A stretch of DNA of 60,609 nucleotides, filler included, from Jimgerdemannia flammicorona (GCA_003990765.1; 3 parts of 3 records of this genome joined end to end with filler, not necessarily neighbours in it); one strand, 5' to 3'; numbered from the whole stretch's first letter, positions 20,979-58,005 are shown. Numbers and translations are program-made. The notes: a model not told the origin generated them from the sequence alone.

Positions 20979-20994
20979 TTAGGTTAGAGTTAGG
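20979..20994 (+). repeat. Degenerate telomeric linker TTAGGTTAGAGTTAGG
   Basis: Lies between the copy 0 5' end and the copy 1 3' end. Confidence 0.8.
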
Positions 20995-23900
20995 CTTCAA
21001 GTAAGAATTTATTTATTGTAGAGAAGATAAGGTACATCAGAGCAACAAAAGACAAAGACTCCTAAGATGAGAAAAGCAAAACAAGGCCAGCGAAGTAAAC
21101 AACTAGCTAAGAAGAACAAAACAAAGGCCAGAGAGGCAACCACCCTATGGATGGGCTGTATAAAACCATTTTGTCATGGCCTTAAGGATAATAAATGCAG
21201 AAAGTAAAGAAAAGGAAGGCTAAAATATAATACATATTTGCCTAGTGCCAACTATATAAACTGTATTGACAACCAAACACCAAATGACTGACAGGAGTTG
21301 AATAACTCAATGCACTCTCAACAACGAGGGAATCAACCAAGGCAAATGAGGGGAAAGAAAGAGATAAAGAAAATGTGTGATCGCTCGATCACCAAAGCAT
21401 CTCCATAATCTTGGTCAGGCAGAACTCGACTGTAAGGTGGCCACCAGAATTACACATAGTATCAATAGCGTGAGAGGCCGTCTCATGAAGAGCTTGAAGA
21501 GGGTAAGCACAAAGTTCTTCCTGCCATTTGTTATTGATAAATCAATCAAGCTGTTCATCCTAATTGGAAGTACCTCGGAAAGCAGAATATGAACCATCGA
21601 GAAGACCGCACCTGAGGAGATGGCCATGATGAAACTTATCTCCACAGGGGCAGGGGCAGGGTTGGCCAAAGTAGCTATAATGCCAGGCGAGGGCAGAATG
21701 CACAAGCCGGGGGGGGAAGGAAAGGACATGGTTGGTGCCCCATGACTGCAAGTGGCCTTTGTGGGTGATGTATCAAATGAGAGCCTGGGAGGAGGAAGCC
21801 CATTCCTGTAGCAGCTGGTCCCAAAGGAAGGACTGAAGGAAGGAGCAGAGTGAGCAAGTCTTGTGGACCTGGGGACGGAGGTCCCAGTACCAGTCGAGAA
21901 AGTCAAGCCAGGAGGTCTAATGCCAGAACTTGTCAATGATAGAACCCGGGGGATGCGTGATAAAGTGCTCACTAAGATGGCTGATGGAGTTGTTGCCGGA
22001 CTTGCTACACCAATCTAGGTGGGCTTGGAACATGCAGCAGAGGTCAGACGTATGATGAAACAAGGAGGGGAGGCCAAGAATCGAACTTCCAAGCAAGGGA
22101 CAGCTAGAAAATCCAACTGCCCAAACAACAGCATCATCAAAGACCTGCTTGGGGCACTTCAACACCTGAAGTCCCATGGTAGCAACCAGACAGGAAGCTT
22201 GTAGAAGGGGGAGGCCATACTCCAGCTGAGGCCAGATGAATATTCGTATGATAGCTAGCTTTACCATTGGTGACCAGAGAGGACTACAGGCATGGCAGAA
22301 CCCAAGAGTTCATTCTGCTTTGACTACATTCTACAATGCGAGGCTGACAAAGTCGAACCCTTTGTTGGTGTACAGCATGCCCAGGTATATGTAGGAGTGG
22401 GGTCATGGGCAGAGTTCGCCCCCAATCAGTATGGCACAGTCAGTAGGGCCAACATAACTGCACTTTTTGGGGTTGAGCTCTATACCATTTGCCCAAAGCC
22501 AATCTTTACAAAAGTCAACCATTCTCTGCCCTTCTGCGGCAGTACAGGTGGTGAGGGTGATATCATCAGTAAAGAAGAGCCCGAGGGGGAAGTTGTACTC
22601 CTTAAACTGTTCATCAAAGGAGGTGGCAAGGGGATCGATAAAGACATCAAACAGCCAAGTGGAGAGGAGGGAGCCCTGGAAGAGGCCACACTCAGTGGGG
22701 ACTGAAGGGTTGATGAGGCCATTATCAATCACCTGATAGGAACAGTGGTTGAACAGGCTTCGGATAATACTAAGGAGGGTCACATCAGCATCTCCTGCCT
22801 CAAATCAGGAAAGGATGAGCTTGAGGGGGACTCAGTCATACACCTGCCGGAGGTCAAGAAAGACATGGTGGCCCCATCCCTTGGTCCACGTCTCATGTGA
22901 AAGCAAGATATGAGAGAGGGACGAGAAGCAGGTTTGGAAGCCATCTTAGCAGTGTGACATTTCTGTCAGGCCACTTTGGCTCTTGATGTATCCTTCCAAA
23001 CACCGCTCAAAGAGTCTACGAAACATTTTAGTCAGAGCAATAGGGTGAAATCCATCGATCGAATGTGATTCCTCCTTCTTAGGGACTGGGATGATGATGG
23101 CAGAATTCCAGTGGCAAAGAGTAAGCCCCCAAACCATATACATCTGGAAAAAGAATGATAGGGCTTTCGATAGGCTATAGGAGGTATCCTTCTCACCTGC
23201 AATCACCCAAAGGATCCAGACATGCAAGGAATCAGCTCCACATGCCTTCAAGAGGGGGTAGCTGCAGATAGCCCTCCAAACCACAGGCTGGTCAAACCAA
23301 GACTGCAGTCCAAGAGCACCCATACCAAGAGGGAAGACATCCTCAGAGTCATTGAGATGGAGGGAGGTGTCCAGTTGGCCAAAAATGGTGGTGAAGTGAG
23401 CAACCACATCATTGAACACTGGGATATTGTGGGAGCCGGATTGTAGAGGTGTGAGGGGGTGGAGCAGTATGCTCACTTGAAACCACAAATGGCATCGGAG
23501 ACTGAAGATGCACTATGAAGAAGGTCCCGCCAGGGGAGCAGTGCCACTCTGATCTCTCTCGTGTCATATGAGCTAAGAATGTCCTCACAGACTGACTGTA
23601 GACCAGAGATCAAAAGGGCATCAAGAGAATCCACAAACTGCTGGCAGTCTTCCATGGAGTGAAAGCCAGCGATATGGTCTCTGATTGAGTGAATGGACCT
23701 GACAAAGGTATAACAAATGATATCCACTGATTCCTGGAGGTGAGCTTGAATGACTGAATTGGTCAGGTATCTCGGAGAGTAATGGTGGATGCCAGCCAAG
23801 GTAGCAACTGGCGAGGGGGAGAAGGGAAAGGAGACAGTGAGGAGGGAGGGGTGGTCAGTAGTGACAGGAGGGGTGGAGTATATAAGGGATGCATGGAGGG

Positions 23901-26075
23901 ACACGGTGGAGAATGCTTGGTCAATGCATGTGGATCCAGCAACTGGGTTCAGGTGGTTCAATGACCACATCATCAGGGATGTGTCGATGACATCCATCCA
24001 GTCACGGAGACCAGAGTTGACATCACCAAGGCGTATACTGAAGTGGGTATTGATGTTACCAATCAAAAGGGCCTTACCTGGGATGGGTCCAGAGATCAGA
24101 TCTTGGAAGCCACCAATAGGAAGAGAGGGGGGGGCATAAACCCCAACCAAAGCCAGGCCCTAGAACATGAGCTGGATATAGAAGGGGTCAGAGGAGGACC
24201 TGGAAATAAGGGGGTGAAATGGTTTGACATAAGTACCACATGGCCACCATTCTGATGACCCACAGTCCTGTGCAATGCTGGGGGAGAGGAGATGTAAATG
24301 AGTGGAGAGGGACACAGCAGGATGTGCCACATTTCACATATGAAAAGAATGTTGAGGGCAGGACCAATCAACCAACTGAGTACATCAAACTTGTCCTGGG
24401 GTAGTCTGTGTGCATTAAGGAACCTGACTCTCATTGTGTGCTAGGTGCAGTAGCGCCAACAGTATGGGAAGCACCTGAGGAGGAAGCTTCGGCTTCCAAA
24501 TTCATTGCCATATCACCTATCATGGCCACAGTACCACCTGCCTTTGAAGCAGGGCCGACCAATAGGGGGGCGGAAGAGTGGAGAGTAAGCCAAGTTCCAT
24601 GGCCCAAATTCTATAGAAGGTCAGCACCTTAGGTCTTTTTGCAGTGGCATCGCCAGCCAACTACTAGACCTGAGCATGGAATAACTGGAGTACCGTGTCT
24701 TCACAGCCTCTGTGGTATTCTTGTTGTGGGGGAGCACAGGGTCCCAGGCCGACAGTACCAAGAACCCAAGCACCTTCATTTTCTTTTGGAATGCCATAAT
24801 ATAATCAGGATGGAGCAGGAATTTGATGGTCGATGCCGAGACATATAACATATTGAGAACCTTTGACAACATCACATAGACATCATATAAGTTCTTCCGG
24901 ATCTGTCCGATCTTAAGATGGGTAAACCTGTCAACATAAATGTACTACAGCCTAGTGCCCTTTTCAGTTGGCGACAAATGAGAGGTCGGCTTGCGAGTCA
25001 TGCACGAAAGGGTGGTAGCAGTGGCTGCCCTTTCCATCTTGGGGTAGGCCTGGGTCCTATCTTTGATAGAAACCTTCTTGGCAGCAGTGATATATGATTT
25101 GGTGGAGATGGGGGTCGAAGCAGGGAATGAAGATAGAAGGGCAGTGCTGGGTCCCACAATTGTAACCTGGGGCACTGATCAGGGAGCCTTGGCCTTGCCC
25201 TTTTTAGGGGGCATGGCTTTAGCGGCTAGAGGGACAGCCATGGGAGAAACCTCCTTTGGTGGTACAACAGACTGTGATGCGGTGGCTTTAGCGGCCTTGC
25301 TTCTGAGCCTTCGGCCGCGTGTTCACGACAAGGCCAGTAGGAGGTGGGGCCAAGGACTTGGGGTGGGTGGATGTGGAAGGAGCAGCATGGGTACTTTCCA
25401 AAGGAGCACCAGATGACGAGAGGGCGGTGGACGCAGATTGCGCAGCAAGCTGTACAATCAGCTGGGCATTGATTTTGGCTAGTTCGGCCACCTGAGTCAG
25501 CAGATCTGAGATCTGCTTCCTCATCGCAGCCATCTCTATGACCAGATTGCAGTCGGCTGAGGGACCGGCATGACTAGCAGTCGGGGTCATATCCAAACTA
25601 GTATTCGGATGACCGTGCTTGTTGAATTGGAAGAGATCGCAATCTCTTCGCCATCTTCTGCATCACACAGGGAAGATAAATATGTCGATATTGGTTGTAT
25701 ATCCCCACTCGACCAGCACATTGCTGTAAGGCTACTCTCACTGAAGCCAAGGGAGAGAAGATTGATGCTGTGACACTAAGCATAGTGGAGAGAGGCGCCA
25801 AAGTGTGTGAAGAGATGGGTGGTGTTACTGTCATCACTGATGACAGAGGAGGAGGTCAACATTGCTGAATTAGGTGGAGGTGTATTTGTTTGTATTTGTG
25901 AAATTGTGAAATGCAGGTCACATGACCTTTGTTTGTGCAATGAAAAAATAATTGGTAAGAGGGATATTTATACCTGATGAGAGGCTTAGCCATTCAAAGT
26001 GACTGCTTTCTTGATTTGGAATAGCTTCGGGCTGTAAAGCCGAGTCTAGCCAAATGGGGAAATTATGTGAGTGGC
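20995..26075 (-). mobile_element. Telomeric APE-RT LINE copy 1 (near full length, small ORF1 deletion, disrupted)
   Basis: APE motifs FLNAH, ICEMW, VYAPPS, TDH; RT motifs GLFQGSLLS, FTDD, ELNPKKC; C-terminal CPCGDKFHHGHLLRC. Confidence 0.92.
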
Positions 26076-26093
26076 TTAGGGGTTAGGGTTAGG
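26076..26093 (+). repeat. Telomeric linker TTAGGGGTTAGGGTTAGG
   Basis: Junction of copies 1 and 2. Confidence 0.9.
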
Positions 26094-29000
26094 CTTCAAG
26101 TAAGGTTTTATTCATTGTAGAAGAAATAAGATACATCGGAGTAACAAACAGCAAAGACTCCTAAGATGAGAAAAGCAAAACAAGGCCAGTGAGGTAAACA
26201 ACTAGCTAAGAAGTACAAACAAAGGCCAGAGAGGTGACCACACTATGGATGGATTGGATAAAACCATTTTGTCGTGGCCATAAAGATAATAAATGCAAAA
26301 GCAAGGAAAAGGAAGGCTAAGATATAATACACATTTGCCCAGTACCAACTACTTGATCCATATCAACAACCAAATACCAAATGACTGACATGAGATAAAT
26401 AACTCAAAGTGCTCTCAACAACAAGGGAACTAATCAAGGCAAATGAGGGGAAAGAAGGGAATAAAGAAAATGTATGATAGCTCGATTACTGAAGCATCTT
26501 GGTAATCTCAGTCAGGCAGAACCCAATCGCGAAGTGGCCACCAGAATTACACATGGTATCGATAGCATGATAGGCCATCTCGTGAAGAGTGTGAAGAGGG
26601 TAGATGCGAAGTTCCTCCTACCATTTGTCATTGGTAAACCAATCGAGCTATTTATCATGATCGGAAGAACCTCGGAAAGCAGAATATGAACTATCGAGAA
26701 GACCACACCTGAGGAGATGGCCACAATGAAACTTATCTCTACAGGGGCAGGGGCGGGGTTGGCCAAAGTAGCCATAGTACCAGGCAAGGGCAGAATGCAC
26801 CAGCCGGGGGGAGAAGGAAAGGATGTGGTCGGCGCCCTGTAACTGCAAGCGGCCTTTGGGGGTGATGTACCGAATGAGAGCCTGGGAGGAGGAGGCTCAT
26901 TCCTGCAGGAGCTGATCCCAAAGGAAAGACTGGAGGAAGGAGCAGAGCAAGCGAGTCTTGTGGACCTGGGGACGTAGGTCCCAGTACCAGTCGAGGAAGT
27001 CAAGCCAAGAGGTCCAACACCGGAACTTGTCAATGATAGAACCCGGGGGATGCGTGACAAAGCGCTCGATAAAGGGGCTGATGGGGTTGTTGCTGGACTT
27101 GCTACACCAATCTAGGTGGGCTTGGAACATGCAGCAGAGGTCAGACATATGATGGAGGAAGGAGGGGAGGCTGAGAATCAAACTGTCAAGCAAGAGATGG
27201 CTGGAAAACCCAACTGCCCAAGTGATAGCATCATCAAAGACCTGCTCGGGATACTTCAACACCTGAAGCCCCATGGTAGTAGCCAGACAGGAGGCATGTA
27301 GAAGGGGAAGGCCATACCCCAGCTGAGGCCTGAGGAATGTTCGTACAATGGCCAGCTTGACCATTGGCAACCCGAGAGGACCACGAGTATGGCAGAACCC
27401 AAGAGTTCATTCCATCTTTGCCACATTCTGTAATGTAAGACTGATAAAGACAAACTCTTTGTTGGTGTACGGCATGCCCAGGTATATGTAGGAGGGGAGT
27501 CATAGGCAGGGTTTGCCCCCAATCAGCACAGCACAGTCGGAAGGGCCAACATAACTGCACTTCTTGGGGTTGAGCTTCATACTATTTGCCTGAAGCCAAT
27601 CTTCACAGAAGTCAACCATCCTCTGCCCTTCCATGGCAGTATATGGGGTGAGGGTGATATCACCAGCAAAGAAGAGCCCAAGGGGAAAGTCTTACTCCTT
27701 GAACTCCTCATCAAAGGAGGTGGTGAGGGGGTCGATAAAGACATCAAATAGCCAAGGGGAGAGGAGGGAGCCCTGAAAGAGACCTGCTCAGTTGGGACCA
27801 AAGGTGTGACGAGGCCATTAACAACCACCTGATAAGAACAGTGGTTGAACAGGCTTCGGACAATGCTATGGAGGGCCACTTCAGCACCTCATGCCTCAAG
27901 TTGAGAGAGAATGAGCTTGAGGGGGACTCGGTCATATGCCTGCCAGAGGCCAAGGAAGATATGGTGGCCCCATCCCTTGACCCACATCTCATGCGATAGC
28001 AAGACATGGGAGAGAGACGAGAAGCGGGTTCAGAAGCCACCTTGGCAGTGTGACATTTCTGTTAGACCACTTCAGCTCTTGACGTAACCTTCCAAGCACC
28101 GCTCGAAGAGTCGACGAAACATTTCAGTCAGGGCAATAGGGCGAAACCCATCAATCGTACATAATTCCTCCTTCTTAGAGACTGGGGTGATGATGGCAGA
28201 GTTCCAGCGACAGGGAGTGAGCCCCCAAACCATGTACATCTGGAAGAAGAATGAGAGAGCCTTCGACAGGCTACAGGGGGCATCCTTCTCACCTACCATC
28301 ACCCGAAGGATCTGGACATACAAGGAGTCAGCACCACAAGCCTTCGAGAGGGGGTATCTGTGGATAGCCCTCTAAACAACAGGTTGGTCAAACCAAGACT
28401 GTAGTCCAAGAGTACCCATGCCAAGGGGAAAGACATCCTCAGAGTCATCAAGACAGAGGGAGACATCTGGCTGGCCGAAGATAGTGGTGAAGTGAGCAAC
28501 CACATCATCAAACACCAGGACATTGGGGGAGCGAGATTGGAGGGGTATGAGGGGGGTGGAGTGGTACACTCACTTGAAACCACAGATGGCATCAGAGACT
28601 GAAGATATACTGCAAAGAAGGTCCCACCGAGGAAGTGGCGCCACCCTGATTTCCCTTGCATTATATGAGCCAAGAATGTCCTCACAGACTGACTGTAGAC
28701 CAGAGGTCGAGAGAATCCACAAACTGCTGGTGGTCTTCCATGGAGCGAAAGCCAGCGACATGATCTCTGATAGAGTAAATGGACCTGATAATAGTATCAC
28801 AAATGATATCCAATGATTCCCAAAGGTGGGCTTGAATGACTGGATCAGTCAGGTATCTCACAGAGTAATAACGGATGCCAGCCCAGGCAGCAACCAGCGA
28901 GGAGGAGAAGGGGAAGGAGCCAGTGAGGAGGGAGGGGTGGTTGATAGTGATAGGAGGGGTAGAACATGTAAGGGATGTATGGAGGGACACAGTGGTAAAT

Positions 29001-31227
29001 GCATGGTCAATGCATGTGGATCCAGCCACTGGGGTCAGGTGGTTCAATGACCATGTCATCAAGGAGGTATTGATGACATCCATCCAATCGCAGGGATCAG
29101 AGTTGATGTCACCAAGGCAGGCACCGAAGTGGGTATTGATATCAACATTCAAAAGGGCCTTACCCAGGAAGGGTTCAGACACTAGATCTCAAAATCCACC
29201 AATAGGAAGAGTGGGGGGGGTGTAAACCCCAACCAAAGCCAAGCCCTGGAATATGAGCCAGATATGGAAGGGGTCGGCAGAGGACCCAGAAATGAGAGGG
29301 GCGAAGCAGTTTGACACAAGGACTATGAGGCCACTATTCTGATGACCTATGGTCCTGTGCGATGCCAGGGGGGAGGACATATGAATGAGCAGAGAGGGAT
29401 GCAGTGGAATGTACTATGCTTCACATATGAAAAGAACATCAAGGGCAGGACCAATCAATTGACTGAGCACATTGAACTTGTCCTGGGGTAGTCTGTGTGT
29501 ATTGAGGAACCCAACTCTCATTGGGGGCCAGGCTAGTTAGCACCAACAGCATGGGAAGCACCTGAGGAGGAAGCTTCAGCTTCCAAATCCATCAGCATAA
29601 CACCTGTCATGCCCACAGTACCACCTGCCTTTGAAGTAGGGCCGGCTGATGGAGGGGCAACAGAGGGGAGAGTAAGGCCGAGGTCCGCAGCCCAAGCTCT
29701 GTAGAAGGTCTGCACCTTAGGCCTCTTCACAGTAGCTTCGCCAGCCAACTGCCGGACCTAGGCGTGGAATAATTGGAGTACCCATGTCTTTATGGCCTCC
29801 AGGGCAGTCTTGTTGCAGGGAAGCACAGAGTCCCAGGCCAATAGCACCGAGACCCCGAGCCTTTCATCTTCTTCTGGAATGCCATGACATAATCAGGGCA
29901 GAGCAGGAATTCACTTGTCGATGCCGAGATGTATAACATATTGAGAACTTTTGACAACATTATATAGACGTTGTGCAAGTTCTTCTGGATCTGCCTGATC
30001 TTCAGATGGGCAAAACCATCAACGTAAACGCACTGCAGCTTAGTGCCCTTCTCAGTCAGCGACAAATAAGAGGTCGGCTTGTGGGTCATGCGTGAAAGGC
30101 TGGCAGTGGTGGCTGCCCTTTCCGTCTTGGGGTAGGCCTGGGTCCTATCCTTAATAGAAACCTTCTTGGCAGCAGCAGCATACGATTTAGGAGAGGTGGG
30201 GGTCGAAGCAGGGGATGGAGACGGACCAGCGGCACTGGGTCCCACAGGTGTAACCTGGGGCACTGGTCCAGGGGCCTTGCCCTTGCCCTTTTTAGGGGGC
30301 ATGGCTTTAGTGGCTGGAGGCACAGCCATGGGAGTTGCCTCCTTTGGTGGTACACCAGACTGTGACATGGTAGCTTTAGTGGCCTGCTTATCTGCTCTCT
30401 TCTAGGCCTTCGACTGTGTGTTTGTGGTAGGTCCAGTGAGAGGGGGGGCCGAGGACTTGGGGAGGGCAGATGTGGAAGGGGTGGTGGGGGTACTTCCTGA
30501 AGGAGTACCAGATGATGAGGGGGTGGTCGGTACCAAATATGCAGTAAGCTGCGCCATCAGCTGGGTGTTGATCTTGGCCAGTTCGGCTACTTGAGTCAGC
30601 AGATCCGAGATCTGCTTCCTCATTATGGTCATCTCCATTACCATATTGTGGTCAGCTGAGGGGCCCGCATGACTGGCAGTCAGGGTCATACCCAAACTAG
30701 TGTTCGGGCAACCATGCTTATTCCGATTGAGAGGCAGGGGTATGGGAGAGTAGGGGGGACACTGGGCATCATGGTCCAAATTGGAAGAGATCGCAATCTC
30801 TTTATCATCTTCTGCATCGCGCAGGGAAGATAAATACGACAAAATCGGTCATACATCCCCGCACGACCTGCACATCGCCGTAAGGCTACCCTCACCAAAG
30901 CCAAGAGAGAGAAGACCAATGCTGTAATATTCAGCATAGTGGAGAGAGGTGCTGAAGTACGCGAAAAGATGGGTAGTATTGCCATCATCACCGATGACAG
31001 TGGAGGTGGCCAATATTGCCGAACTAGGCAGAGGTATATTTGTTTGTATTTGTGAAATTGTGAAATGTGAGTCACGTGACCTTTGTTTGTATAATGAAAA
31101 AATAATGGAGAAGGGGGTATTTATACCCAATAAGAGGCTTAGCTAATCAAAGTAACTGCTTTCTTAATTTTGAATAGCTTCGGTCCATAAAACTGAGTCT
31201 AGCCAAATGGGGAAATCATGTGAGTGG
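26094..31227 (-). mobile_element. Telomeric APE-RT LINE copy 2 (full length, disrupted)
   Basis: Colinear with the other copies from CTTCAAG to GAGTGG. Confidence 0.92.
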
Positions 31228-31238
31228 TTAGGGTTAGG
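31228..31238 (+). repeat. Telomeric linker TTAGGGTTAGG
   Basis: Junction of copies 2 and 3. Confidence 0.9.
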
Positions 31239-36270: not shown

Positions 36271-36294
36271 TAGTGCTCTGAATGAATGGAGTTG

Positions 36295-42048: not shown

Positions 42049-42065
42049 TTAGGATTAGAGTTAGA
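42049..42065 (+). repeat. Fossil telomeric linker TTAGGATTAGAGTTAGA
   Basis: G>A-decayed TTAGGGTTAGGGTTAGG, followed by CTTTAAGTAA (= CTTCAAGTAA). Confidence 0.75.
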
Positions 42066-43585: not shown

Positions 43586-43626
43586 TCTTCCTCCTAAATA
43601 GGTGATTCATCTCAGGAGTATTCTAT

Positions 43627-44088
43627 TCACTCGAATTCCCAGGCTTTTACAATTTGTATTTCCTTATACTGTGCAATTTGTATCATTACATCCTTCCAAT
43701 ATTGTCTCTTGACATATCCAAAGTCTCCTGGAGTTACTCCTCGGAAATAGGCTAAGGCTAACTCATCATCTTTGAATAACTTGTGCACTCTTTTTGCAAT
43801 TGTGATCTGAGTATAAGAGAGCTGACATTCTCTGATCCAGTCTTCTTTTCCCATCTTTGGTCTTGAATTTAGTAGCTGTCCCAACTTGAAGTATTCCTGA
43901 AACTCAGTTCGGTTCTGATAGGCCTTGAAATGTAAGATTCATGATAAGTGTGTTTGTACTATACTCTGGATGCCATCAAAGGATTCTTCTATTGTTGGTG
44001 ACTCAGTAGAACACCACTGTCTTTCAATGGCTTGCTGGGCCATACTAGTAATTCTGAGAGCAGTTGTATTACTTTGTTGACTAGTCAT
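43627..44088 (-). pseudogene. Extra ORF between integrase and PPT, similar to the LTR-encoded ORF
   Basis: 154 codons with one internal stop. QEYFKLGQLL...AKRVHKLF...LALAYFRGVTPG versus DYEIGHHL...ALRVHQIF...WAIAHLQGVTAG. Confidence 0.62.
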
Positions 44089-46753: not shown

Positions 46754-46787
46754 TAGGGTTAGGGTTAGGGTTAGGGTTAGGGTTAGG
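46754..46787 (+). repeat. Interstitial telomere tract (~5.7 TTAGGG)
   Basis: Perfect repeats fused to broken gypsy pol. Confidence 0.95.
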
Positions 46788-47182
46788 CTTCAAGTAAGAA
46801 TTTATTCATTGTAGAGAAGAAAAGGTACATCGGAGCAACAAAAGACAAAGACTCCTAAGATGAGAAAAGCAAAACAAGGCCAGCGAAGTAAACAATTAGC
46901 TAAGAAGTACAAAACAAAGGCCAGAGAGGTGACCACCATAAGGACAGGCTGGATAAAACCATTTTGTTACAGCCATAAAGATAATAAATGCAAAAAGCAA
47001 GCAAAGGGAGGGCTAAGATATAATATACATTCGCTTGGTGCCAACTACAGGAACCGTATCAACAACTACAATACCAAATGACTGATATGAGATGAATAAC
47101 TCAATGTACTCTCAATAATGGGGGAACCAACTGAGGCAAATGAGGGGAAAGAAAGGAGTAAAGAAAATATGCAATCACTTGA

Positions 47183-50100
47183 TCACCCAAGCATCTTCAT
47201 AATCTCGGTCAGGCAGAACCTGACCATGAGATTGCCACCAGAATTACATATAGTATCGATAGCATGGTAGGCTGTCTTGTCAAGAGCATAAAGAGGGTAG
47301 GCGCAAAGTTCTTCCTGCCATTCGTCATTGGTAAATCAGTCAAGCTGTTCATCTCGATCTGAAGAACCTCGAAAAGCCGAATATGAACCATCGAGAAGAC
47401 TGTACCTGAGGAGATGGCCACGATGAAACTTGTCTCTACAGGAGCAGGAGTGGGGTTGGCCAAAGTAGCTATAGTGCCAGGCGAGGGCAGAACACACAAG
47501 CTGGGGGGGGAAGGAAAGGACGCGGTCAGTGCCCTGCAACCATAAGCAGCCTTTGGGGGTGATATACAGAATGAGAGCCTGGGAGGAGGAGGCCCATTCC
47601 TGCAGTAGTTGATCCTGGAGGAAGGACTAGAGGAAGGAGCGGAGCAAGCGAGTCTTGTGGACCTGGGGACAGAGGTCCCAGTACAAGTCGAGGAAGTCAA
47701 GCCAAGAGGTCCAATGCTGGAACTTGTCAATAATAGAACTCAGAGGATGCATAATGAAGCGCTCGCTAAGGGGGATGATGGAGTTGTTGCCAGACTTGCC
47801 ATATCAATCCAGATGGGCTTGGAACATACAGCAGAGGTCGGACATACGATGAAGGAAGGAAGAGAGGCCAAGAATCAAACTGCCAAGCAAGGGACGGCTG
47901 GAAAATCCAACCGCCCAAGTGACAGCATCATCAAAGACCTGCTTGGGACGCTTCATCATCTGAAGCCCCATGGTAGTAGCTGGACAGGAAGCTTGTAGAA
48001 GGGGAAGGCCGTATTCCAGCTGAGGCCTGATGAATATTCGTACGATGGCCAGCTTGACCATTGGCGACCAGAGGGGACCACGGGTGCAGCAGAAACCAAG
48101 AGTACGTTCCACCTTCGCCGCATTCTGCAACGCCAGGTTGACAAAGTCGAACCCTTTGCTGGTGTATGGCACGCCCAGGTATATGTAGGAGGTGGGTCGC
48201 AGGCAGGGTTCACCCCCAATCAGCACAGTACAGTCAGCCGGACCAACATAACTACACTTCTTGGGATTGAGCTCCATACCATTCACCCGGAGCCAATCCT
48301 CACAGAAATCAACCATCCTTTGCCCTTCCGTGGCAGTGCAGGGGGTAAGGGTGATGTCATCAGCAAAGAAAAGCCCGAGGGGGAAGTTGTACTCCTTGAA
48401 CTGCTCATCAAAGGAGGCGGTGAGGGGATTAATAAAGACATCAATCAGCCAAGGGGAGAGGAGGGAGCCCTGGAAGAGGCCGTGCTCAGTGGGGACCGAA
48501 GGGGTGATAAGGCCATTAACAACCACCTGATAGGAACAGTAATTGAACAGGTTTCAGATAATGCTAAGGAGGGCTGCATCGGCACCTCATGCCTCAAGGC
48601 GAGAAAGAATGCACTTGAGGGGGACTCGATCATATGCCTGCTGGAGGTCCAAAAAGACACGGCGGCCCCATCCCTTGGCCCATGTCTCATGTGATAACAA
48701 GACATGGGATAGGGACAAGAAGCGGGTTCGGAAGCTACCTTGGCAGTGCGACATTTCTGTCAGGCCACTTCGGCTCTTGACGTATCCTTCCAAACACCAC
48801 TCGAAGAGTCTATGAAATATTTCAGTCAGAGCAATAGGGCAAAATCCATCGATCGTTCGCGATTTCTCCTTCTTGGGGACTGGGGTGATTATGGCTGAGC
48901 TCCAGCAGTGTGGAGTGAGCCCCCAGACCACACACATCTGGAAGAAGAATGAAAGAGCCTTCGAAAGGCTACAGGGGGCGTCCTTCTCACCTGCCATCAC
49001 CTGAAGGATCCGGACATGCAAGGAGTCGGCACCACATGCCTTTGAGAGGGGGTAGCTGTGGACAGCCCTCCAAACTGTAGGTTGCTCAAACCAAGACTGC
49101 AGCTCAAGAGCACCCATGCTGAGGGGGAAGACATCCTCAGAGTCGTCGAGGTGGAGGGAGGCATCCGGTTGGCCGAAGATGGTGGTAAAGTGAGCAACCA
49201 CGTCATCGAACACTGGGACATTGGGTGAGCGAGATTGGAGGGGTGCGGAGGGGGCGGAGCGATACGCTCGCTTGAAACCACAGATAGCATCAGAGACCGA
49301 AGATGCACTGTGAAGAAGGTCCTGCCTGGGGAGCGGTGCTGCCCTGATTTCTCTTGTGTCATATGAGCCAAGAATGTCCTCACAGACTGACTATAGACCA
49401 GAGGTCAAAAGGGCATCAAGAGAATCCACAAACTGCTGGCGATCTTCCACAGAGCGAAAGCTGGCAATGTAGTCTCTGACAGAGTAGATGGATCTGACAA
49501 CGGTATCACAAATGATATCCGCTGTTTCCCGAAGATGAGCTTGAATGACTGGGTCGATCAGGTATCTCGCAAAGTAACAACGGATGCCAGCCAAGGCAGC
49601 AACTGGCAAGGGAGAGAAGGGGAAGGAGACGGTGAGGAGAGAGGGGTGATCGGTAGCGACAGGAGGGGTGGAGCAGGTGAGGGATGCATGGAGGGATATG
49701 GTGGCGAACGCGTGGTCAACGTGTGTGGATCCAGCCACCAGGGTCAGGTGGTTCAACGACCACATCATCAAGGAGGTGTCGATGACATCCATCCGGTTAC
49801 GAGGACCAGAGTTGACATCACCAAGGTGAGCACCGAAGCAGGTATTGATGTCACCGATCAGAAGGGCCTTACCTGGGAAGGGTCCAGACACCAAGTCACA
49901 GAAGCCACCAATGGGAAGAGAGAGGGGGGTGTAAACCCTAACCAAAGCCAAGCCCTGGAATATAAGCCAGATATGGAAGGGGTTGGCGAAGGACCCAGAA
50001 ATGAGGGGGGTGAAGCGGTTTGACACAAGAACCACGAGACCACCATTCTGGTGACCCATGATCCTGTGTGACACCGGAGGAGAGGACATGTGAATGAGTG

Positions 50101-50230
50101 GAGAGGGATGCAGTGGAATGTGCCACATTTCACATACAAAAAGAATGTTGAGGGCAGGACCAATCAACCGACTGAGCACATCGAACTTGTCCTGAGGTAG
50201 TCCGTGTGCATTGAGGAACCTGACTCTCAT
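47183..50230 (-). pseudogene. ORF2 (~1015 aa): APE endonuclease, RT, CCHC-like knuckle
   Basis: FLNAHGL, VCEMW, IGDINT, HVDHAF, TDH; KACGADSL, FLDLQQAYDRVP, GLFQGSLLSP, LFFADD, YIYLGVP; CSCRDKFHRGHLLR. The ATG overlaps the ORF1 stop (ATGA). Confidence 0.9.
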
Positions 50231-51726
50231 TGTGGGCCAGGCATGTTAGTGCCAACAGCGTGGGAAGCACCTGAGGCGGAAGCTTCGGCTTCCAAATCCA
50301 TCGCCATATCACCCGTCACAGCCACAGTACTACCTGCCTTCGAAGTAGGGCCAGCCAACGGGGAGGCGGGGGAGGGGAGAGCGAGGCCGAGTTCCGCGGC
50401 CCATGCCCTGAAGAAGGTCTGCACCTCGGACCTCTTTGCAGTGGCTTCGCCTGCCAACTGCCGGACCTGGGCATGGAAAGATTGGAGTACCCATGTCTTT
50501 ACGGCCTTCATAGCGTTCTTGTTGCGTGGGAGCGCGGGGTCCCAGGCCGACAGCACCGAGAACCCGAGCACCTTCATCTTCTTTTGGAATGCCGTAACAT
50601 AATCAGGGCGGAGCAGGAAGTCGATGGTCGATACCGAAACATACGACATATTGAGAACCTTTGAAAACATCACATGGACATTGTACAAGTTCTTCTGGAT
50701 CTGCCCGATCTTGAGATGGGCAAATCCGTCGATGTAGACATGCTGCAGCCTAGCGCCCTTTTTAGTCAGTGATAAATGGGAGGTCGGCTTGTGGGTCATG
50801 CATGAAAGGGTAGCAGCGGCAGCTGCTCTTTCCGTCTCGGAGTAGGCCTGAGTCCTATCCTTGATAGAGACCTTCTTGGTGGTGGTGGCGTAAGATTTAG
50901 GGGGAGTGGGGGCCGAAGCAGGGGACGAAGACGGACTGGCGGCGCTGGGTCCTACAGGCGTAACCTGGGGTACTGGCCTGGGAGCCTTGGCCTTGCCCTT
51001 TTTAGTGGGCATGGCTTTAGCGGCCCAAGGCACAGCCGTGGGAGTTATCTCCTTGGGTGGCGCACCAGACTGCAATGCAGCGGCTTTAGTGGCCCGCTTG
51101 TCCGCTTGCTTCTGGGCCTTCAACTGCGTGTTCATGGCAGGACCAGTAGGAGGGGGGGCTGAGGACTTGGAGGGGGCGGATGTGGAAGGGGTGGCGGGGA
51201 TACTTCCCAAAGGAGCACCAGATGACAAGGGGGCAGTGGGCGCATGTTACGCAGCAAGCTGCACCATGAGCTGGGTGTTGATCTTGGCCAGTTTGGCCAC
51301 TTGAGTCAGCAGATCCGAGATCTGCTTCCTCATCATGGCCATCTCTGTGACCAGAACGGGGTCAGCTGAGGGGCCTGTACGACCAGCCATCGGGGTCATT
51401 CCCAAACTAGTGTTCGGGTAACCATGCTTGTTCCGATTGAGGGGCGGGGGCGTGGGAGAGTAGGGGGGGTGCTGGATATCGTAGTCCGAATCGGAAGAGA
51501 TTGTGATCTCTTCGTCATCTTCTGCATCGCGCAGAGAAGATAAATACGATGAAATTGGTCGTGCATCCCCGCACGACCTGCACATCACCGTGAGGCTACC
51601 CTCGCCAAAGCCGAGAGAGAGAAGAACGACGCTGCGACACTCAGCACAGCGAAGAGAGGTGCCAAAGCGCGCGAAGAGATGGGTGGCGTTGCCATCATCA
51701 CCAACGACAGAGGAGGTGGCTGATAT
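50227..51726 (-). pseudogene. ORF1 (~499 aa): C4 motif, coiled coil, Pro/Ser/Lys linker, conserved C-terminal domain
   Basis: ORFs 51247-51804 and 50227-51228 share a frame. The start codon is ATG in copies 0, 1 and 3 (ATA here). CAECR...MCRSC; RKQISDLLTQVAKLAKINTQL. Confidence 0.8.
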
Positions 51727-51938
51727 TGCCGAAATAGGCGGAGGTGTGTTTGTTTGTATTTGTGAAATTGTGAAATGCAGGTCATGTGACCTTGGTTTGT
51801 GCAACGAAAAAATAATGGAGAAGGGGAGTATTTATACCCGATGAGAGGCTTAGCTAATCAAAGTGACAGCTTTTTTTATTTAGAATAGCTTCGGGCCATA
51901 AAGCCGAGTCTAGCCAAATGGGGAAACATGTGAGTGGC

Positions 51939-51949
51939 TTAGGGTTAGG
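51939..51949 (+). repeat. Telomeric linker TTAGGGTTAGG
   Basis: Junction of copies 4 and 5. Confidence 0.92.
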
Positions 51950-54900
51950 CTTCAAGTAAGAATTTATTTATTGTAGAGAAGACAGGGTACATCAGAGCAA
52001 CAAAAGACAAAGACTCCTAAGATGAGAAAAGCAAAACAAGGCCAGCGAAGTAAACAACCAGCTAAGAAGTACAAAACAAAGGCCAGAGAGGTGACCACCC
52101 TATGGATGGGCTGGATAAAACCATTTTGTCATGGCCATAGAGATAATAAATACAAAAAGCAAAGAATGGGAAGGCTAAGATATATTACACATTTGCCCGG
52201 TGCCAACTACATGAACCATATCGACACCCAAACACCAAACAGCTGACATGAGATGAATAACTTAATGCACTCTCAACAACGGGGGGAACCAACCAGGCAA
52301 ATGAGGGGAAGGATAGAAGTAAAGAAAATGTGTGATCGCTCGATCACCCAAACATCTTCATAATCTCGGTCAGGCAAAATCCAACCGCGAGGTGGACACC
52401 AGAATTACACATGGCATCTATAGCGCGATAGGCTGTCTCGTGAAGAGCATGAAGAGGGTAGGCACGAAGTTCCTCCTGCCAATCGTTATTAGTAAACTAG
52501 TCGAGCTGTTCATCTCAATCTGAAGAACCTCGAAAAGCCGAATAAGAACCGTCGAGAAGACCGCACCTGAGGAGATGGCCACAATGAAACTTATCTCCAC
52601 AGGGGCAGGGGTGGGGTTGGCCAAAGTAGCCATAGCACCAGGCGAGGGCAGAACGCACAAGCCGGGGGGAGAAGGAAAGGACGTGATCGGTACCCCTCGA
52701 CTGCAAGCAGCCTTTGGGGGTGATATACCAAATGAGAGCCTGGGAGGAGGAGGCCCATTCCTGCAGCAGCTGATCCCGAAGGAAGGACTGGAGAAAGGAG
52801 CGGAGCGAGCGAGTCTTGCGGACCTGGGGACGGAGATCCCAGTACCAGTCAAGGAAGTCAAGCCAAGAGGTCCAATGCTCGAACTTGTCAATAATAGAAC
52901 CCGGGGGATGCGTGACAAAACGCTCGCTAAGAGGACTGATAGGGTTGTTGTCTGACTTGCTACACCAATCCAGGTGGGCTTGGAACATGCAGCAGAGGTC
53001 AGACATGCGACGAAGGAAGGAAGGGAGGCCAAGAATCGAGCTGCCAAGCAAGGGACAGCCAGAAAATCCAACCGCCCAAGCGACAGCATCATCAAAGACC
53101 TGCTTGAGACACTTCAATACCTGAAGCCCCGTGGTAGTAGCCAGACAGGAAGCACATAGGAGGGGGAGGCCATATTCCAGCTGAGGCCTGAAGAATGTTT
53201 GTACAATGGCCAACTTGACCATTGGCGACCAGAGGGGACCACGAGCATAGCAGAACCCAAGAGTTCATTCCGCCTTTGCTGCATTCTGCAATGCAAGGTT
53301 GACAAAGTCAAACCCTTTATTGGTGTACGGCATGCCCAGGTATACATAGGAGGTAGGTCGAGGGCAGGGTTCGCCCCCAATCAGTATAGTACAGTCAGCT
53401 AGGCCAACATAATCACACTTCTTGGGATTGAGCTCCATACCATTCACCCAAAGCCAATTCTCACAGAAATCAACCATCCTCTGCCCTTCCACGGCAGTGT
53501 GGGGGGTGAGGGCAATGTCATCAGTAAAGAAAAGCCCGAGGGGGAAGTCGTACTCCTTGAACTGCTCATCAAAGGAGGCAGCGAGGGGGTTGATAAAGAC
53601 ATCAAATAGCCAGGGGGAGAGGAGGGAGCCCTGGAAGAGGCCGCGCTCAGTGGGGACCGAAGGGGTGATGAGACCATTGACAACCACCTAATAAGAACAG
53701 TGATTAAATAGGCTTCGGATAATGCTAAGGAGGGCTGCATCGGCACCTTGTGCCTCAAGGCAGGAAAGAATGCACTTGAGGGAGACTTGGTCGTATGCCT
53801 GCTGGAGGTCCAGGAAGACACGGCGGCCCCATCCCTTGGCCCACGTCTCGTGCGATAGCAAGACATGAGAAATGGACGAGAAGTGGGTTCGGAAGCCACC
53901 TTGGCAGCGCGACATTTCTGTCAGGCTGCTTCAGCTCTTGATATATCCTTCCAAACACCGCTCGAGATTCTACGAAACATTTCAGTCAGAGCAATAGGGC
54001 GAAATCCATCAATCATACGTGATTCCTCCTTCTTGGGGACTGGGGTGATGATGGCTGAGTTCCAGTGGCGGGGAGTGAGCCCCCAGATCATGCACATCTG
54101 GAAGAAGAACGAGAGAGCCTTCGAAAGGCTATAGGGGGCATCCTTCTCACCTGCCATCACCTGAAGGATCCGGACATGCAAGGAGTCGGCACTGCATGCC
54201 TTTGAGAGGGGGTAGCTGTGGACAGCCCTCCAAACTGCAGGTTGGTCAAACCAAGACTGCAGCCCAAGAGCGCCCACGCTGAGGGGGAAGACATCTTCTG
54301 AGTCATCGAGACGGAGGGAGGCATCCGGTTGGCCGAAGATAGTGGTAAAGTAGGCAACTACATCATTGAACACTGGGACATTGGGGGAGCAGGACTGAAG
54401 GGGTGTGGAGGGGGTGGAGCAGTACACTAGCTTAAAGCCACGAATGGCATCTGAGACCGAGGATGCACTGCGAAGGAGGTCTCACCTAGAGAGTGGCATG
54501 GCTCTGATTTCTCTTGCGTCATATGAGCCAAGAATGTCCTCACAGACAGACTGTAGACCAGAGGTCAAAAGAGCATCAAGGGAATCCACAAACTGCTGGC
54601 GATCATCCACAGAGCAAAAGCCGGTGATGTGGTCCCTAACAGAGTAGATAGATCTGATAACAGTATTACAAATGATATCTGCTGATTCCCGAAGGTGAGC
54701 TTGAACGACCAGATCAGTCAGATATCTCGCAGAGTAATAACAGACGCCAGCCAAGGTAGCAACTGGCGAGGGGGAGAAGAGAAAGGAGACAGTGAGGAGG
54801 GAAGGGTGGTCGGTAGTGACAGGAGGGGTGGAGAAGGTGAGGGATGTGTGGAGGGACGCAGTGGCGAATGCATGATCAACGCATATAGAATCAGCCACCA

Positions 54901-56702
54901 GGGTCAGGTGGTTCAATGACCACATCATCAGGGAGGTGTCAACGACATCCATCCAATCGCGAGGACCAGAGTTGACGTCACCAAGGCAGGCACCAAAGTG
55001 GGTTTTGATTTCACCAATCAAAAGGGCCTTACCCGGGAAGGGTCCAGACACCAGATCACGGAAGCCACCAATGGGAAGAGAGGGGGGGGCGTAAACCACA
55101 ACCAAAGCCAAGTCCTGGAACATGAGCCGGATATAGAAGGGGTCGGTGGAGGACCTGAAAATGAGGGGGGCAAAACAGTTTGACACAAGGACTATGAGAC
55201 CACCATTCTGGTTGCCCACGATCCTGTGCGACGCCGGAGGGGAGGCCATGTAGATGAGCGGAGAGGGACATAGCGGAATGTGCCATGTTTCACATATGAA
55301 AAGAACATTGAGAGCAGGACCAATCAACCGACTGAGCACATTGAACTTGTCCTGGGGTAGTCTGTGTGTATTGAGGAACCTGACTCTCATTGTGGGCTGG
55401 GTGTGTTAGCGCCAACAGCGTGGGATGCACCTGAGGTAGAAGCTTCAGCTTCCAAATCCATCACCATTTCACCCATCATGGCCACAGTACCACCTGCCTT
55501 CGAAGCAGGGCCGGCCAGCGGGGAGGCGGAGGAGGGGAGAGTGAGGCCAAGTTCCGCGGCCCAAGCTCGGTAGAAGGTCTGCACCTCGGGCCTCTTTGCA
55601 GTGGCCTCACCTGCCAACTGCCGGACTCGAGCATGGAATGATTGGAGTATCCGTGTCTTCATGGCCTCTATGGCATTCTTGTTGTGTGAGAGCGCAGGGT
55701 CCCAGGCCAACAGCACCGAGAACCTGAGCACCTTCATCTTCTTTTGGAATGCCATGACATAATCAGGATGGAGCAGGAATTCGATGGTCGATGCTGAGAC
55801 ATACGACATGTTGAGAACTTTTGACAACATCACATGGACGTCATACAAGTTCTTCCGGATCTGCCCGTTCTTTAAATGGGCAAATCTGTCAACATAAACA
55901 TACTGCAGCCTAGTGCCCTTCTCAGTCGGCAACAAATGAGAGGTTGGCTTAAGAGTCATGCGCGAAAGGGTGGTAGCTGCAGCTGCCCTTTCCGTCTTAG
56001 GGTAGGCCTGGGTCCTATCCTTGATAGAGACCTTTTTAGTGGCGGCGGCATACAATTTGGGAGAGGCGGGGGTCGAAGCAGTGGACAAAGATGGACTGGT
56101 GGTGCTGGGTCCCACAGGCGAAACCTGGGGCACTGGCCCGGGAGCCTTGGCCTTACCCTTTTTAGAGGGCACAGCTTTAGCGGCCAGAGGCACAGCCGTG
56201 GGAGTTACCTCCTTTGATGGTGCACCAGACTGCGACGAGGCGGCTTTAGCGCCCCACTTGTCCACTCACTTCTGGGCCTTCGACTGTGTGTTCACGGCAA
56301 GACCAGTAGGAGGGGGGGCCAAGGACTTGGGGGGGGCGGATGTAGAAGAGGCGGCAGGGGTACTTCCTGAACGAGTACCAGATGACAAGTGGGCGGTGGG
56401 CATATGATGTGCAGCAAGCTGCGCCATCAGCTGGGCATTGATCTTGGCCAGTTCGGTCACCTGGTTAGCAGATCTGAGATCTGCTTCCTCATCGCGGCCA
56501 TCTCTGTGACCAGATCAGGGCCGGCTGAGGGGCCTGCACGACCGGCCATCGGGGTCATTTCCAAACTAGTGTTCGGGCGACCACGCTTGTTCCGATTGAG
56601 GGGCGGTGGCATCGGAGAGTAGGGGGGCGCTGGGCATCATGGTCTGAATCGGAAGAGATCGCAATCTCTTCGTCATCTTCCGCATCGCGCAGGGAAGATA
56701 AA
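51950..56702 (-). mobile_element. Telomeric LINE copy 5 (5'-truncated within ORF1)
   Basis: Homology ends at GGGAAGATAAA, then telomeric repeats follow. Confidence 0.93.
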
Positions 56703-56729
56703 GGGTTAGGGGTTAGGGTTAGGGTTAGG
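56703..56729 (+). repeat. Interstitial telomere tract GGGTTAGGGGTTAGGGTTAGGGTTAGG
   Basis: Caps truncated copy 5 and precedes the copy 6 3' end. Confidence 0.93.
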
Positions 56730-57969
56730 TTTCAAGTAAAAATTTATTCATTGTAGAGAAGATAAGGTACATTGGAGCAACAAAAGACAAAGACTCCTAA
56801 GATGAAAAAAGCAAAACAAGGCCAGCAAAGTAAACAACTAGCTAAGAAGTACAAAACAAAGACCAAAGAGATGTCCACCCTATAGACAGGCTGGATAAAA
56901 CCATTTTGTTACGGCCGTAAAGATAAAAATGCAAAAGCAAGGAAAGGAAGGCTAAGATAAAATACACATTCACCCGGCGCCAACTACATGAACCGTATCA
57001 TTAACTAAACTCCAAATGACTGATATGAGATGAATAACTCAATGCACTCTCAACAACGGGGGGAACCAACCAAGGCGAATGAGGGGAAAGAAGGAAATAA
57101 AGAAAATGTGCGATCACTCGATCACCCAAGCATCTTCGTAATCTTGGTCAGGCAGGACCCGACTGCGAGATGGCTACCAGAATTACACATGGCGTCTATG
57201 GCATGGTAGGCTGTCTCGTGAAGAGTGTGAAGAGGGTAGGCACGAAGTTCCTCCTGCCATTCGTCATTGGTAAACCAGTCGAGCTGTTCATCTCGATCTG
57301 AAGAACCTTGGAAAGCAGAATATGAACCGTTGAGAAGACCGCACCTGAGAAGATGGCCACGATGAAACTTATCTCTACAGGGGCAGAGGCGGGGTTGGCC
57401 AAAGTAGCCATAGCGCCAGGCAAGGGCAGAATGCACAAGCTGGGGGGGGAAGGAGAGGACACGATCGCGCCCCGCAACCGCAAGCGGCCTTTGGGGGTGA
57501 TGTATCGAACGAGAGTCTGGAAGAGGAGGCCCATTCCTGTAGCAGCTGATCCCGAAGAAAGGACTGGAGGAAGGAGCGGAGTGAGCGAGTCTTGCAGACC
57601 AGGGGACAGAGGTCTCAGTACCAGTCGAGGAAGTCAAGCCAAGAGGTCCAATACCGGAAATTGTCAATGATAGAACCCGGGGGACACATGACAAAGTGCT
57701 CGCTAAGAGGGCCGATAGGGTTGTTGCCCAACTTGCTACACCAATCCAGATGGGCTTGGAACATGTAGCAGAGATCAGATGTATGACGAAGGAAGGAAGG
57801 GAGGCCAAGAATCGAGCTGCCAAGCAGGGGATGGCCAGAGAACCCCGCCTAAGCGACAGCATCATCAAAGATCTGCTTGGGACACTTCAACACCTGAAGC
57901 CCTGTGGTAGTAGCCAGACAGGAAGCACATAGGAGGGGAAGGCCATATTCCAGCTGAGGCCTGATGAAT

Positions 57970-58005
<36 letters not shown>

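Follow-up and report, generated by a model that had tools for sequence, protein, structure and literature searches.

LINE copies stacked at a chromosome end of Jimgerdemannia flammicorona end in a telomere-complementary tail, probably copied from RNA, in place of poly(A)

The window analysed here, a whole stretch of 60,609 nucleotides from Jimgerdemannia flammicorona (GCA_003990765.1; three parts of three records joined end to end with filler, not necessarily neighbours in the genome), carries an array of long interspersed nuclear elements (LINEs) whose coding strand ends in the telomere-complementary 11-mer CCTAACCCTAA and not in poly(A). We show how this array is built and oriented, that the apurinic/apyrimidinic-type endonuclease (APE) of the element is conserved, and that the tail is a trait of the family. 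Taken together, the data probably, though by no means certainly, reflect a LINE array at a chromosome end in which a telomere-like tail copied from the element RNA replaces poly(A) and pairs with the 3' end of the telomeric G strand. The 3' end of the RNA, the pairing and the order of events are those that we infer from the sequences.

A terminal (TTAGGG)n tract (period 6, 21.5 copies) lies at the + strand end of the window, which is therefore a chromosome end with the + strand as G strand. The LINE unit, about 5.15-5.16 kb long, is repeated head-to-tail on the minus strand in at least eight copies (c0-c7), with all 3' ends facing the centromere and all 5' ends facing the tip. At this one end, eight of the eight copies are thus on the minus strand, and they reach the terminal tract. 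Copies c0, c1, c2 and c5 share a common 5' end, which reads ...GCCAAATGGGGAAATTATGTGAGTGG(C) on the + strand. Copies c6 and c7 have lost 5' sequence, each from a truncation point of its own, c7 being capped by the terminal tract, and the 5' side of c3 adjoins non-telomeric, non-family sequence. Copies were compared by means of a 5162-nt query made of the c5 unit and the 11-nt tract. From proximal to distal, the features of the array are:

20750-20978, minus strand: c0, only the 5'-terminal ~230 nt recognisable, with AT-rich decayed DNA to its left
20979-20994, minus strand: 16-nt mutated tract between the c0 5' end and the c1 3' untranslated region (UTR), TTAGGTTAGAGTTAGG on the + strand
20995-26075, minus strand: c1, full length except for a ~55-nt internal gap
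26076-26093, minus strand: 18-nt tract between the c1 5' end and the c2 3' UTR, TTAGGGGTTAGGGTTAGG on the + strand
26094-31227, minus strand: c2, full length
31228-31238, minus strand: 11-nt tail of c3, against the full-length c2 5' end
31239-36272, minus strand: c3, without ~115 nt of the 5' end; CCHC motif intact ~658 nt from the 3' end
42049-42065, minus strand: decayed c4 tail or linker, 17 nt, TTAGGATTAGAGTTAGA on the + strand
42066-42898, minus strand: c4, AT-rich and decayed, recognisable over its 3' ~800 nt only (57.6% identity)
46754-46787, minus strand: 34-nt telomeric tract including the c5 tail, right of non-family sequence
46788-51938, minus strand: c5, full length (5' UTR, ORF1, ORF2, 3' UTR)
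47183-50230, minus strand: open reading frame (ORF) 2 of c5, ~1015 codons
50227-51228, minus strand: ORF1 of c5, 333 codons stop to stop
51939-51949, minus strand: 11-nt tail of c6, directly against the full-length c5 5' end; minimal linker
51950-56702, minus strand: c6, 5'-truncated at 4757 of the 5162-nt query
56703-56729, minus strand: 27-nt telomeric tract between the truncated c6 5' end and the c7 3' UTR, its last 11 nt being the c7 tail CCTAACCCTAA
56730-60479, minus strand: c7, 5'-truncated inside the end of ORF1 and telomere-capped, with a ~124-nt insertion
60481-60609, plus strand: terminal (TTAGGG)n tract, up to the last base of the window

The original prediction had described seven TTAGG|CTTCAAG junctions in one register, and all seven were recovered (20994/5, 26093/4, 31238/9, 42065/6, 46787/8, 51949/50 and 56729/30), one of them decayed (42065/6) and one with a C>T change (56729/30). 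The string TTAGGYTTCAAGTAA occurs exactly on the + strand at 20990, 26089, 31234, 46783, 51945 and 56725, and not once in 100 shuffles. When C>T and G>A changes are allowed, the pattern TTARRYTTYAARTAA is found at exactly seven sites, adding 42061 (TTAGACTTTAAG), for 0.15 expected by chance. On the element strand, AATAAA is followed by 13 nt (TTCTTACTTGAAG) and then by CCTAACCCTAA, with small variants in c2 and c7; the tail hence ends 24 nt past AATAAA. No A run separates CTTGAAG from the telomeric bases at any of the seven junctions, and the claim of a polyadenylation signal without an A tail is thus upheld.

The telomeric tracts left of the junctions, counted by hand, measure 16 (mutated), 18, 11, 17 (decayed), 34, 11 and 27 nt from proximal to distal, with a minimal linker of 11 nt at 31228-31238 and 51939-51949, as had been predicted. 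Two of the four full-length-to-full-length junctions have just these 11 nt, the others having 16 and 18 nt. Longer tracts follow the c6 5' end (27 nt), the unclassified sequence beyond c4 (34 nt) and c7 (at least 129 nt). Exact CCTAACCCTAA 11-mers number 24 in the window, all on the minus strand and confined to the junctions and to 60481-60609. The exact 30-nt junction string had no match among bacterial and archaeal contigs, which is uninformative given that search set.

Evidence on whether the 11 bases belong to the element or to its target comes from one related family (related contigs with about 31-33% reverse transcriptase (RT) identity to the window), in which 3' ends were located by their 3' UTR motif alone. 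Among 27 such ends, 25 run straight into CCTAA and two have an altered first base. The tail is 11 nt long in 11 cases, 15 nt in three, 14, 13 and 10 nt in two each, and 6, 9, 12, 16 and 21 nt in one each (the two altered ends being scored 0). When 38 tail flanks (150 nt or longer) from the full set of related loci were compared with the rest of that set, 15 had no other match in it and represent unique non-telomeric DNA. The other flanks match sequence elsewhere in the set, several of them 5'-truncated copies of the clade arranged head-to-tail, others tandem repeats, and some sequence left unclassified. Some related copies are interior to contigs of 90 and 134 kb, with a NACHT-ankyrin gene, Tet_JBP and hAT nearby. 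The mode at 11 nt, the fixed start and the unrelated flanks together argue for an RNA-templated terminus rather than for insertion into random telomere tracts. Judging from these comparisons, the 11-nt tail is most likely templated by the element RNA, and TTAGG|CTTCAAG most likely marks where the 3' UTR meets an encoded telomere-complementary tail, at a point internal to the element. The junction would then be invariant because the tail is templated and, since the boundary would be internal, neither the 3' end of the primer nor a TTAGG^G nick could be read from it.

The tail extends well beyond a single family. We gathered 78 metagenome loci (519,734 bases), fetched by two RT peptide patterns alone and oriented by their RT. 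CCTAACCCTAA is present on the element strand, downstream of ORF2, in 43 of the 78 loci, and its complement in one, for about 0.12 expected per strand; it is the commonest of the six repeat registers (43 loci vs 24-29). The strands differ similarly in perfect runs in telomere phase (at least 9 nt), of which the element strand has 84, spread over 50 loci, and the other strand 10, in 5 loci. Per-locus positions, read by eye, mostly put the first tail 30-930 nt past the ORF2-like end, and in L036, L046, L052 and L072 the first run comes 1.2-2.5 kb downstream of that end. AATAAA is found 1-16 nt upstream of the tail in 13 of 54 runs, and the end of L008, AATAAATTCCGTAAAG|CCTAACCCTAA, can be set against that of the window, AATAAATTCTTACTTGAAG|CCTAACCCTAA. 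No poly(A) was seen at the tails of these relatives, A runs of at least 12 occurring in three loci, away from the tails.

An RT tree built with FastTree from 121 rows places the window copies within a 103-row clade (local support 98) that is set apart from 18 more ordinary APE-LINE proteins, and tails are present in nearly all subclades of this clade. Scored by locus, 36 have a tail, 30 have too little downstream sequence, 11 have none and one has it on the opposite strand. On re-reading the 11 loci scored as having none, we found tails at other copies within L042, L055 and L057; in addition, a C-strand telomere tract of 98 nt opens L025, a 5'-truncated copy coming next, and L024 has CCCTAACCCTA 1 kb after ORF2. 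On our reading, L039 holds a second, opposite-strand element with its own CCTAA tail, 5'-truncated and capped by terminal (TTAGGG)n. L039 and L025 thus have an end structure like that of the window, L039 giving the same picture as c7. These sequence counts suggest that a telomere-complementary tail is the rule in a large clade and not a single oddity.

Several observations weigh against a tail encoded by the element and copied from its RNA. Five related loci (L003, L018/L020, which are one locus, L021, L067 and L077) have no tail despite enough downstream sequence. The passage from 3' UTR to tail is documented in relatives with 28-43% RT identity and not in the window family, in which every tail is followed by another copy or by more telomere repeats, allowing a target origin there. 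In MoTeR arrays, interstitial tracts are described as stable only up to (TTAGGG)2 and as breaking from three repeats onwards (PMC7367193), and by analogy the short linkers of the window could be survivors. An automatic search for target-site duplications in related loci gave only artefacts and a 15-mer inside ORF2 of L072, and hence no valid case; such duplications are not definable inside telomere repeats, nor are the 5' ends of the related family definable. The consensus fold of the 3' UTR (-11.9 kcal/mol) shows compensatory change in 0 of 30 pairs and has no covariation support.

Two minor features of the element ends may be added. By eye, the last ~130 nt of the 3' UTR (20984-21114 and its five equivalents) are better kept than the 83-88% average, and as this end is T-rich, the conservation may only mirror the scarcity of C/G targets for decay. 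The base following tails that end in ...TAA is G in 18 of 25 related-locus cases (51 tail runs), and G also comes next at three of the four full-length-to-full-length window junctions (20978/9, 26075/6 and 51938/9). This G could be cap-derived at 5' ends, reflect a nick preference or be an extra templated base.

The element is an L1-like, APE-type LINE. Its hallmarks are an RT of LINE type, an N-terminal APE, an ORF1 preceding ORF2 and a C-terminal cysteine-histidine motif; the poly(A) or A-rich tail, another hallmark, is absent at seven of seven junctions, where CCTAACCCTAA stands in its place. Because other LINE groups too have non-A tails, this is no ground for exclusion from LINEs. ORF1 of c5 has an N-terminal part rich in proline, serine and alanine, and its stop overlaps the ORF2 start as ATGA. 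It matched no Pfam family and has one unnamed homologue (E = 5e-13); the Atlas points, as a lead only, to unnamed Mucoromycota clusters. ORF2 of c5 (start 50230) contains six in-frame stops and aligns with the relative P0001 in a single 826-column alignment (residues 4-817) that is interrupted by these stops only, without any frameshift. The APE lies at ~49616-50230 and the RT at ~48170-48870, and the CCHC-type motif follows towards the C-terminus. This motif, C-x-C-x7-H-x3-C, is found in five of the seven copies, ~656-664 nt from the 3' end, and is kept in relatives.

RVT_1 was detected in 2 of 12 ORF pieces of the window (E = 1e-12 and 6e-11), and a protein search with the RT piece yielded 45 longer proteins, several of them with Exo_endo_phos. 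The two named relatives belong to early-diverging fungi: Calcarisporiella thermophila and Smittium culicis, the latter protein being annotated as "LINE-1 ORF2". These two relatives and the C>T decay described below make a fungal source likely. Pfam did not detect the APE domain in the decayed pieces of the window and did detect it in the relatives P0003 and P0011. An alignment of 13 APE/RT sequences (three window copies and ten relatives) places the APE residues N7, E34, Y100, D127-x-N129, H173 and D194-H195, of which N7, E34, Y100, D127, N129, D194 and H195 are invariant or nearly so. The family profile matches human L1 ORF2p over residues 5-773 (E = 5e-40) and, at ~1e-6, the L1 endonuclease on its own; at E<=0.01 it matches the L1 endonuclease and not those of TRAS1 or R1Bm. 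The predicted structure of the N-terminal 279 amino acids (pLDDT 77.4, pTM 0.72) matches L1 ORF2p, the L1, R1Bm and TRAS1 endonucleases and APE1 with a Foldseek probability of 1.00, the TRAS1 endonuclease (1wdu) ranking 23rd. Catalytic residues, profile match and fold therefore agree with the earlier assignment to APE-type LINEs.

Other identities were considered. The element is not of the MoTeR/FoTeR type (CRE clade), since its APE is N-terminal, no RHD/N motif follows the CCHC motif and the frame ends ~70 residues later. A Penelope-like element (Coprina/Athena) was likewise rejected, as the APE is kept and the nearest solved RT is that of L1 ORF2p. As to the R1 clade (TRAS/SART), the element has no poly(A), and the profile favours the L1 endonuclease, while the fold search matches all of these endonucleases alike.

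All ORFs in the window are broken, and every copy is dead. Pairwise identity among copies is 83.2-87.6%, with transitions outnumbering transversions by ~5:1 and C>T and G>A changes prevailing. Per site and copy, the C>T/G>A rate is 0.10-0.125 at CpG (leaving out ACG, which has only three sites), 0.04-0.07 at CpA and lowest at CpT. Copies c0 and c4 have decayed to 26-30% G+C, and AT-rich blocks of the same composition (14000-20750 and 41900-44000), which include them, adjoin the array. This decay is of a kind resembling repeat-induced point mutation (RIP) or driven by methylation. Private changes per kb amount to 38 in c1, 36 in c2, 33 in c3, 27 in c5, 23 in c6 and 27 in c7, and this fall from proximal to distal fits older copies being proximal and the array having grown sequentially, although c4 is out of line with this order. 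Linkers and truncation points vary from junction to junction.

The course of events that we consider probable would begin with cleavage of the transcript about 20-24 nt past AAUAAA, in or just after the tail. With its 1.8 telomere repeats, much like a telomerase template, the tail would pair with the 3' end of G-strand DNA; the ORF2 protein would extend the paired end, and reverse transcription would enter the 3' UTR in a fixed register without copying an A run. If A's were added to the RNA, reverse transcription would have to start on the tail and not on them, and pairing of the tail with a 3' end in ...TTAGGG would account for this. A natural or eroded chromosome end may supply the 3' OH, as may a nick made by the APE, either within telomere repeats or within a resident copy's tail. 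After addition, the 5' end of the element would form the new tip, which telomerase would extend or to which the next element would be joined by its own tail alone. If the tail is encoded, transcripts would be expected to end in ...CUUGAAGCCUAACCCUAA, with or without added A.

Copy c7 bears a different kind of insertion. The ~124 nt at 57970-58092 derive from a minus-strand RNA 3' end with AATAAA 19 nt before ~70 A, and a direct repeat of 12-13 nt, GGCCTGATGAAT(G), borders them on either side. Such a structure, with its target-site duplication, is typical of poly(A)-primed insertion of LINE type, and retrotransposition machinery that uses poly(A) has thus also acted in this genome. As the RNA of this insertion was cut 19 nt past AATAAA, cleavage of the element transcript in or just after its tail is plausible.

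Two models had been put forward for the junction: specific nicking of the G strand at TTAGG^G by the APE, and annealing of an RNA ending in CCUAACCCUAA to the natural G-overhang. The first keeps its enzyme, as the residues and the fold of the APE bear out, but probably loses its nick position, which had been read from a junction that, to judge from the tails of relatives, most likely lies within the element. As to the second, the tails of relatives favour its premise of an RNA ending in CCUAACCCUAA, by way of comparison. The two models are not alternatives, since annealing of the tail would fix the register however the primer end is made. The remark that the window alone cannot separate nicking from end-priming was correct. 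In favour of end-priming, copies lie at the very tip and some joints consist of the tail only, and the Penelope-like precedent (PMC4522978) also counts for it. In favour of nicking, the APE is kept across the clade, relatives are found beside non-telomeric DNA, and new copies lie within the tails of resident copies (L053, L055 and L057). A broader proposal would embrace both: a widespread, probably fungal clade of APE-LINEs with an 11-nt template-like CCUAACCCUAA end, priming directly on G-strand ends without its endonuclease, extending the tip as a back-up to telomerase, perhaps still inserting at APE nicks elsewhere, and representing an intermediate between LINEs and telomerase that arose independently of the Penelope-like and Drosophila telomere elements. 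We put this forward tentatively, as a scenario that is more doubtful than the pairing of an RNA-copied tail by itself.

The same junctions might be explained without an encoded tail, if the RNA ended in ...CUUGAAG and the APE nicked at TTAGG^G, all telomeric bases at the junctions being target DNA. All window junctions do sit in telomeric bases, the family has kept the APE domain together with its catalytic residues, and TRAS1 and SART1 are described as telomere-specific APE LINEs whose specificity is set by the endonuclease (PMC7265360). We nevertheless judge this explanation unlikely: the relatives carry the 11-mer beside unique non-telomeric flanks, with a mode at 11 nt, and each lineage would have to hit a pre-existing CCTAACCCTAA; the two full-length-to-full-length junctions of exactly 11 nt would require nicking of an 11-nt tract; and the position of AATAAA predicts cleavage inside or after the tail and not before it. 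Still less probable, to the point of being hardly credible, is the view that recombination alone copied one junction, by unequal crossing-over, break-induced replication or extension of a displacement loop (D-loop). Such D-loop extension is documented for MoTeR tandem arrays with identical linkers (PMC7367193), and the junctions at 31228-31238 and 51939-51949 are alike in structure. However, what lies to the left of the seven junctions falls into at least five different contexts (11, 16 or 18 nt after full-length 5' ends, 27 nt after the c6 truncation, 34 nt after unclassified sequence, and one decayed); no block is duplicated, c1-c5, c2-c6 and c3-c7 being 83.2-84.5% identical and no closer than other pairs; and diverged relatives have this type of junction at unrelated loci.

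Reverse transcriptases of LINEs are able to jump end to end between templates, as known from the R2 literature, and the 11-nt full-length junctions might have been made in one event, with the enzyme leaving one RNA at its 5' end and resuming at the 3' end of another, which would generate concatemers. At two of the four junctions the tail indeed lies directly against the next 5' end without extra telomeric bases, and L050, L053 and L057 contain strings of very short 5'-truncated copies, each directly on the previous tail. Yet neighbouring copies differ by 13-17% and private changes fall from proximal to distal, which is better accounted for by different ages, although C>T decay after insertion blurs this argument; we accordingly see template jumping as an improbable source of these junctions. 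The pairing of an RNA-copied tail with the G-strand end thus stays, among the explanations weighed here, the one that we prefer.

Known telomeric retrotransposons have been catalogued as TRAS/SART, GilM/GilT, Zepp1, MoTeR1, Tx1-1_ACar and Athena (PMC10088271), to which FoTeRs were added in 2025 (PMC12857005). TRAS1 and SART1 (R1 clade, Bombyx mori) resemble our element in having an APE and an RT, two ORFs, a fixed register and orientation in telomere repeats and arrays at chromosome ends (PMC7265360). They differ by their poly(A) end, SART1 being reported to need a long poly(A) for an accurate start (PMC7265360), and by their target, TTAGG; the element described here is associated with TTAGGG and has a telomere-complementary tail in place of the A tail. 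Tx1-1_ACar from the green anole (Tx1/L1-like, APE-type) is, like our element, an L1-like LINE with an APE, and is reported to be (TTAGGG)n-specific (PMC10088271). It is a vertebrate element, whereas the named relatives of ours are fungal, and it is known here from a citation only (Kojima and Jurka, Repbase Reports 2013).

MoTeR1, FoTeR and Cnl1 are fungal elements of (TTAGGG)n ends that share with ours a 3' end facing the centromere, short repeats after this 3' end, the absence of poly(A), arrays with truncated copies and RIP-type decay, as described in PMC12857005 and PMC7367193. However, they are reported to lack an APE and to encode, in a single ORF, a restriction-enzyme-like endonuclease at the C-terminus (CCHC...RHD/N...E...R/KPD; PMC12857005), while the element of the window has an N-terminal APE and a CCHC motif followed by ~70 residues, with neither RHD nor PD-(D/E)XK. 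Coprina/Athena and a subtelomeric element of Zymoseptoria are described as having 1-3 telomere repeats at a 3' end that points away from the telomere (PMC4522978), and these repeats have been proposed to form base pairs with the telomeric single strand, whose 3' OH would serve as primer (PMC4522978, citing Gladyshev and Arkhipova 2007). Coprina/Athena elements lack an endonuclease and have a Penelope-type RT, in contrast to the L1-like RT and conserved APE found here. By analogy, the J. flammicorona element appears to be an APE-type LINE that works at its 3' end like Penelope-like telomeric elements.

Human LINE-1, the best match of solved structure over endonuclease and RT, shares the priming principle that a nicked DNA 3' end pairs with the RNA tail (PMC4700185). 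It differs in its poly(A), its T-rich nicks and its dispersed copies, the window copies having a CCUAACCCUAA tail and being stacked at a telomere. The RNA template of telomerase, ~1.5-2 repeats long (11 nt in human telomerase), likewise base-pairs with the 3' end of the G strand, and a reverse transcriptase copies it. Telomerase copies its template alone and cyclically, whereas the polymerase of the element runs on into 5 kb, and its RT is not of telomerase type. A literature search, whose scope excluded Repbase Reports and most subscription journals, returned no report of CCCTAA tails in an L1-like clade.

Telomere-targeting retrotransposons are the chief natural models for reverse transcriptases that take over the maintenance of chromosome ends. 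To our knowledge, three types have been recognised: poly(A) LINEs directed by an endonuclease (TRAS/SART), elements with a restriction-like endonuclease (MoTeR/FoTeR) and endonuclease-less Penelope-like elements. The element described here unites, as far as sequences can tell, a conserved APE endonuclease with a probable telomere-complementary RNA terminus. If this holds throughout the clade, template-end pairing and nicking specificity could be tested against each other as setters of the register within one family; pairing of a template end with telomeres would have had a second, independent origin; and the short interstitial telomere motifs beside LINE 3' ends in these genomes would be explained. 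In genome annotation, neither a relic of a telomere nor the end of an assembly should be called on the strength of CCTAACCCTAA following a LINE 3' UTR.

Some related loci have additional features. In L005 (4486-4720) and L007 (8645-8850), tandem units of ~60 nt, each with a telomere-like CCCTAACCCT, come right after the tail and recall the variant telomere-like repeats at the 5' ends of MoTeR and FoTeR. In L046 (6516-11136), a related tail abuts an ORF of 1535 amino acids with DEAD and Helicase_C domains on the other strand, which recalls fungal telomere-linked helicases; co-localisation with helicases of this type is reported for FoTeRs (PMC12857005). In L072, a 10-mer and a 15-mer that are adjacent in ORF2 (7545-7574) recur at 11003-11062, where they flank the last 33 nt of the same element (3' UTR end and tail). 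Either a template switch or the nesting of a very short insertion in a copy of this ORF2 piece could have produced the arrangement.

Within the window, about 5.8 kb of non-family, non-repeated sequence (36273-42048) extend from the truncated c3 5' end to the decayed c4 tail. Tandem repeats of 14-15 nt occur in this segment, which has no Pfam match, and a repeat search of 36273-42065 and 42899-46753 gave no informative matches. Two 44-N runs with 12 bases between them are present both at 20141-20240 and at 40380-40479. Finally, positions 1-14000 (+ strand) hold an unrelated Gypsy-type long terminal repeat retrotransposon with broken frames and with zinc knuckle, dUTPase and RT_RNaseH domains, a search with its RNase H giving distant matches only, from wasps and Pythium; it also has internal tandem repeats of 55, 121 and 186 nt.

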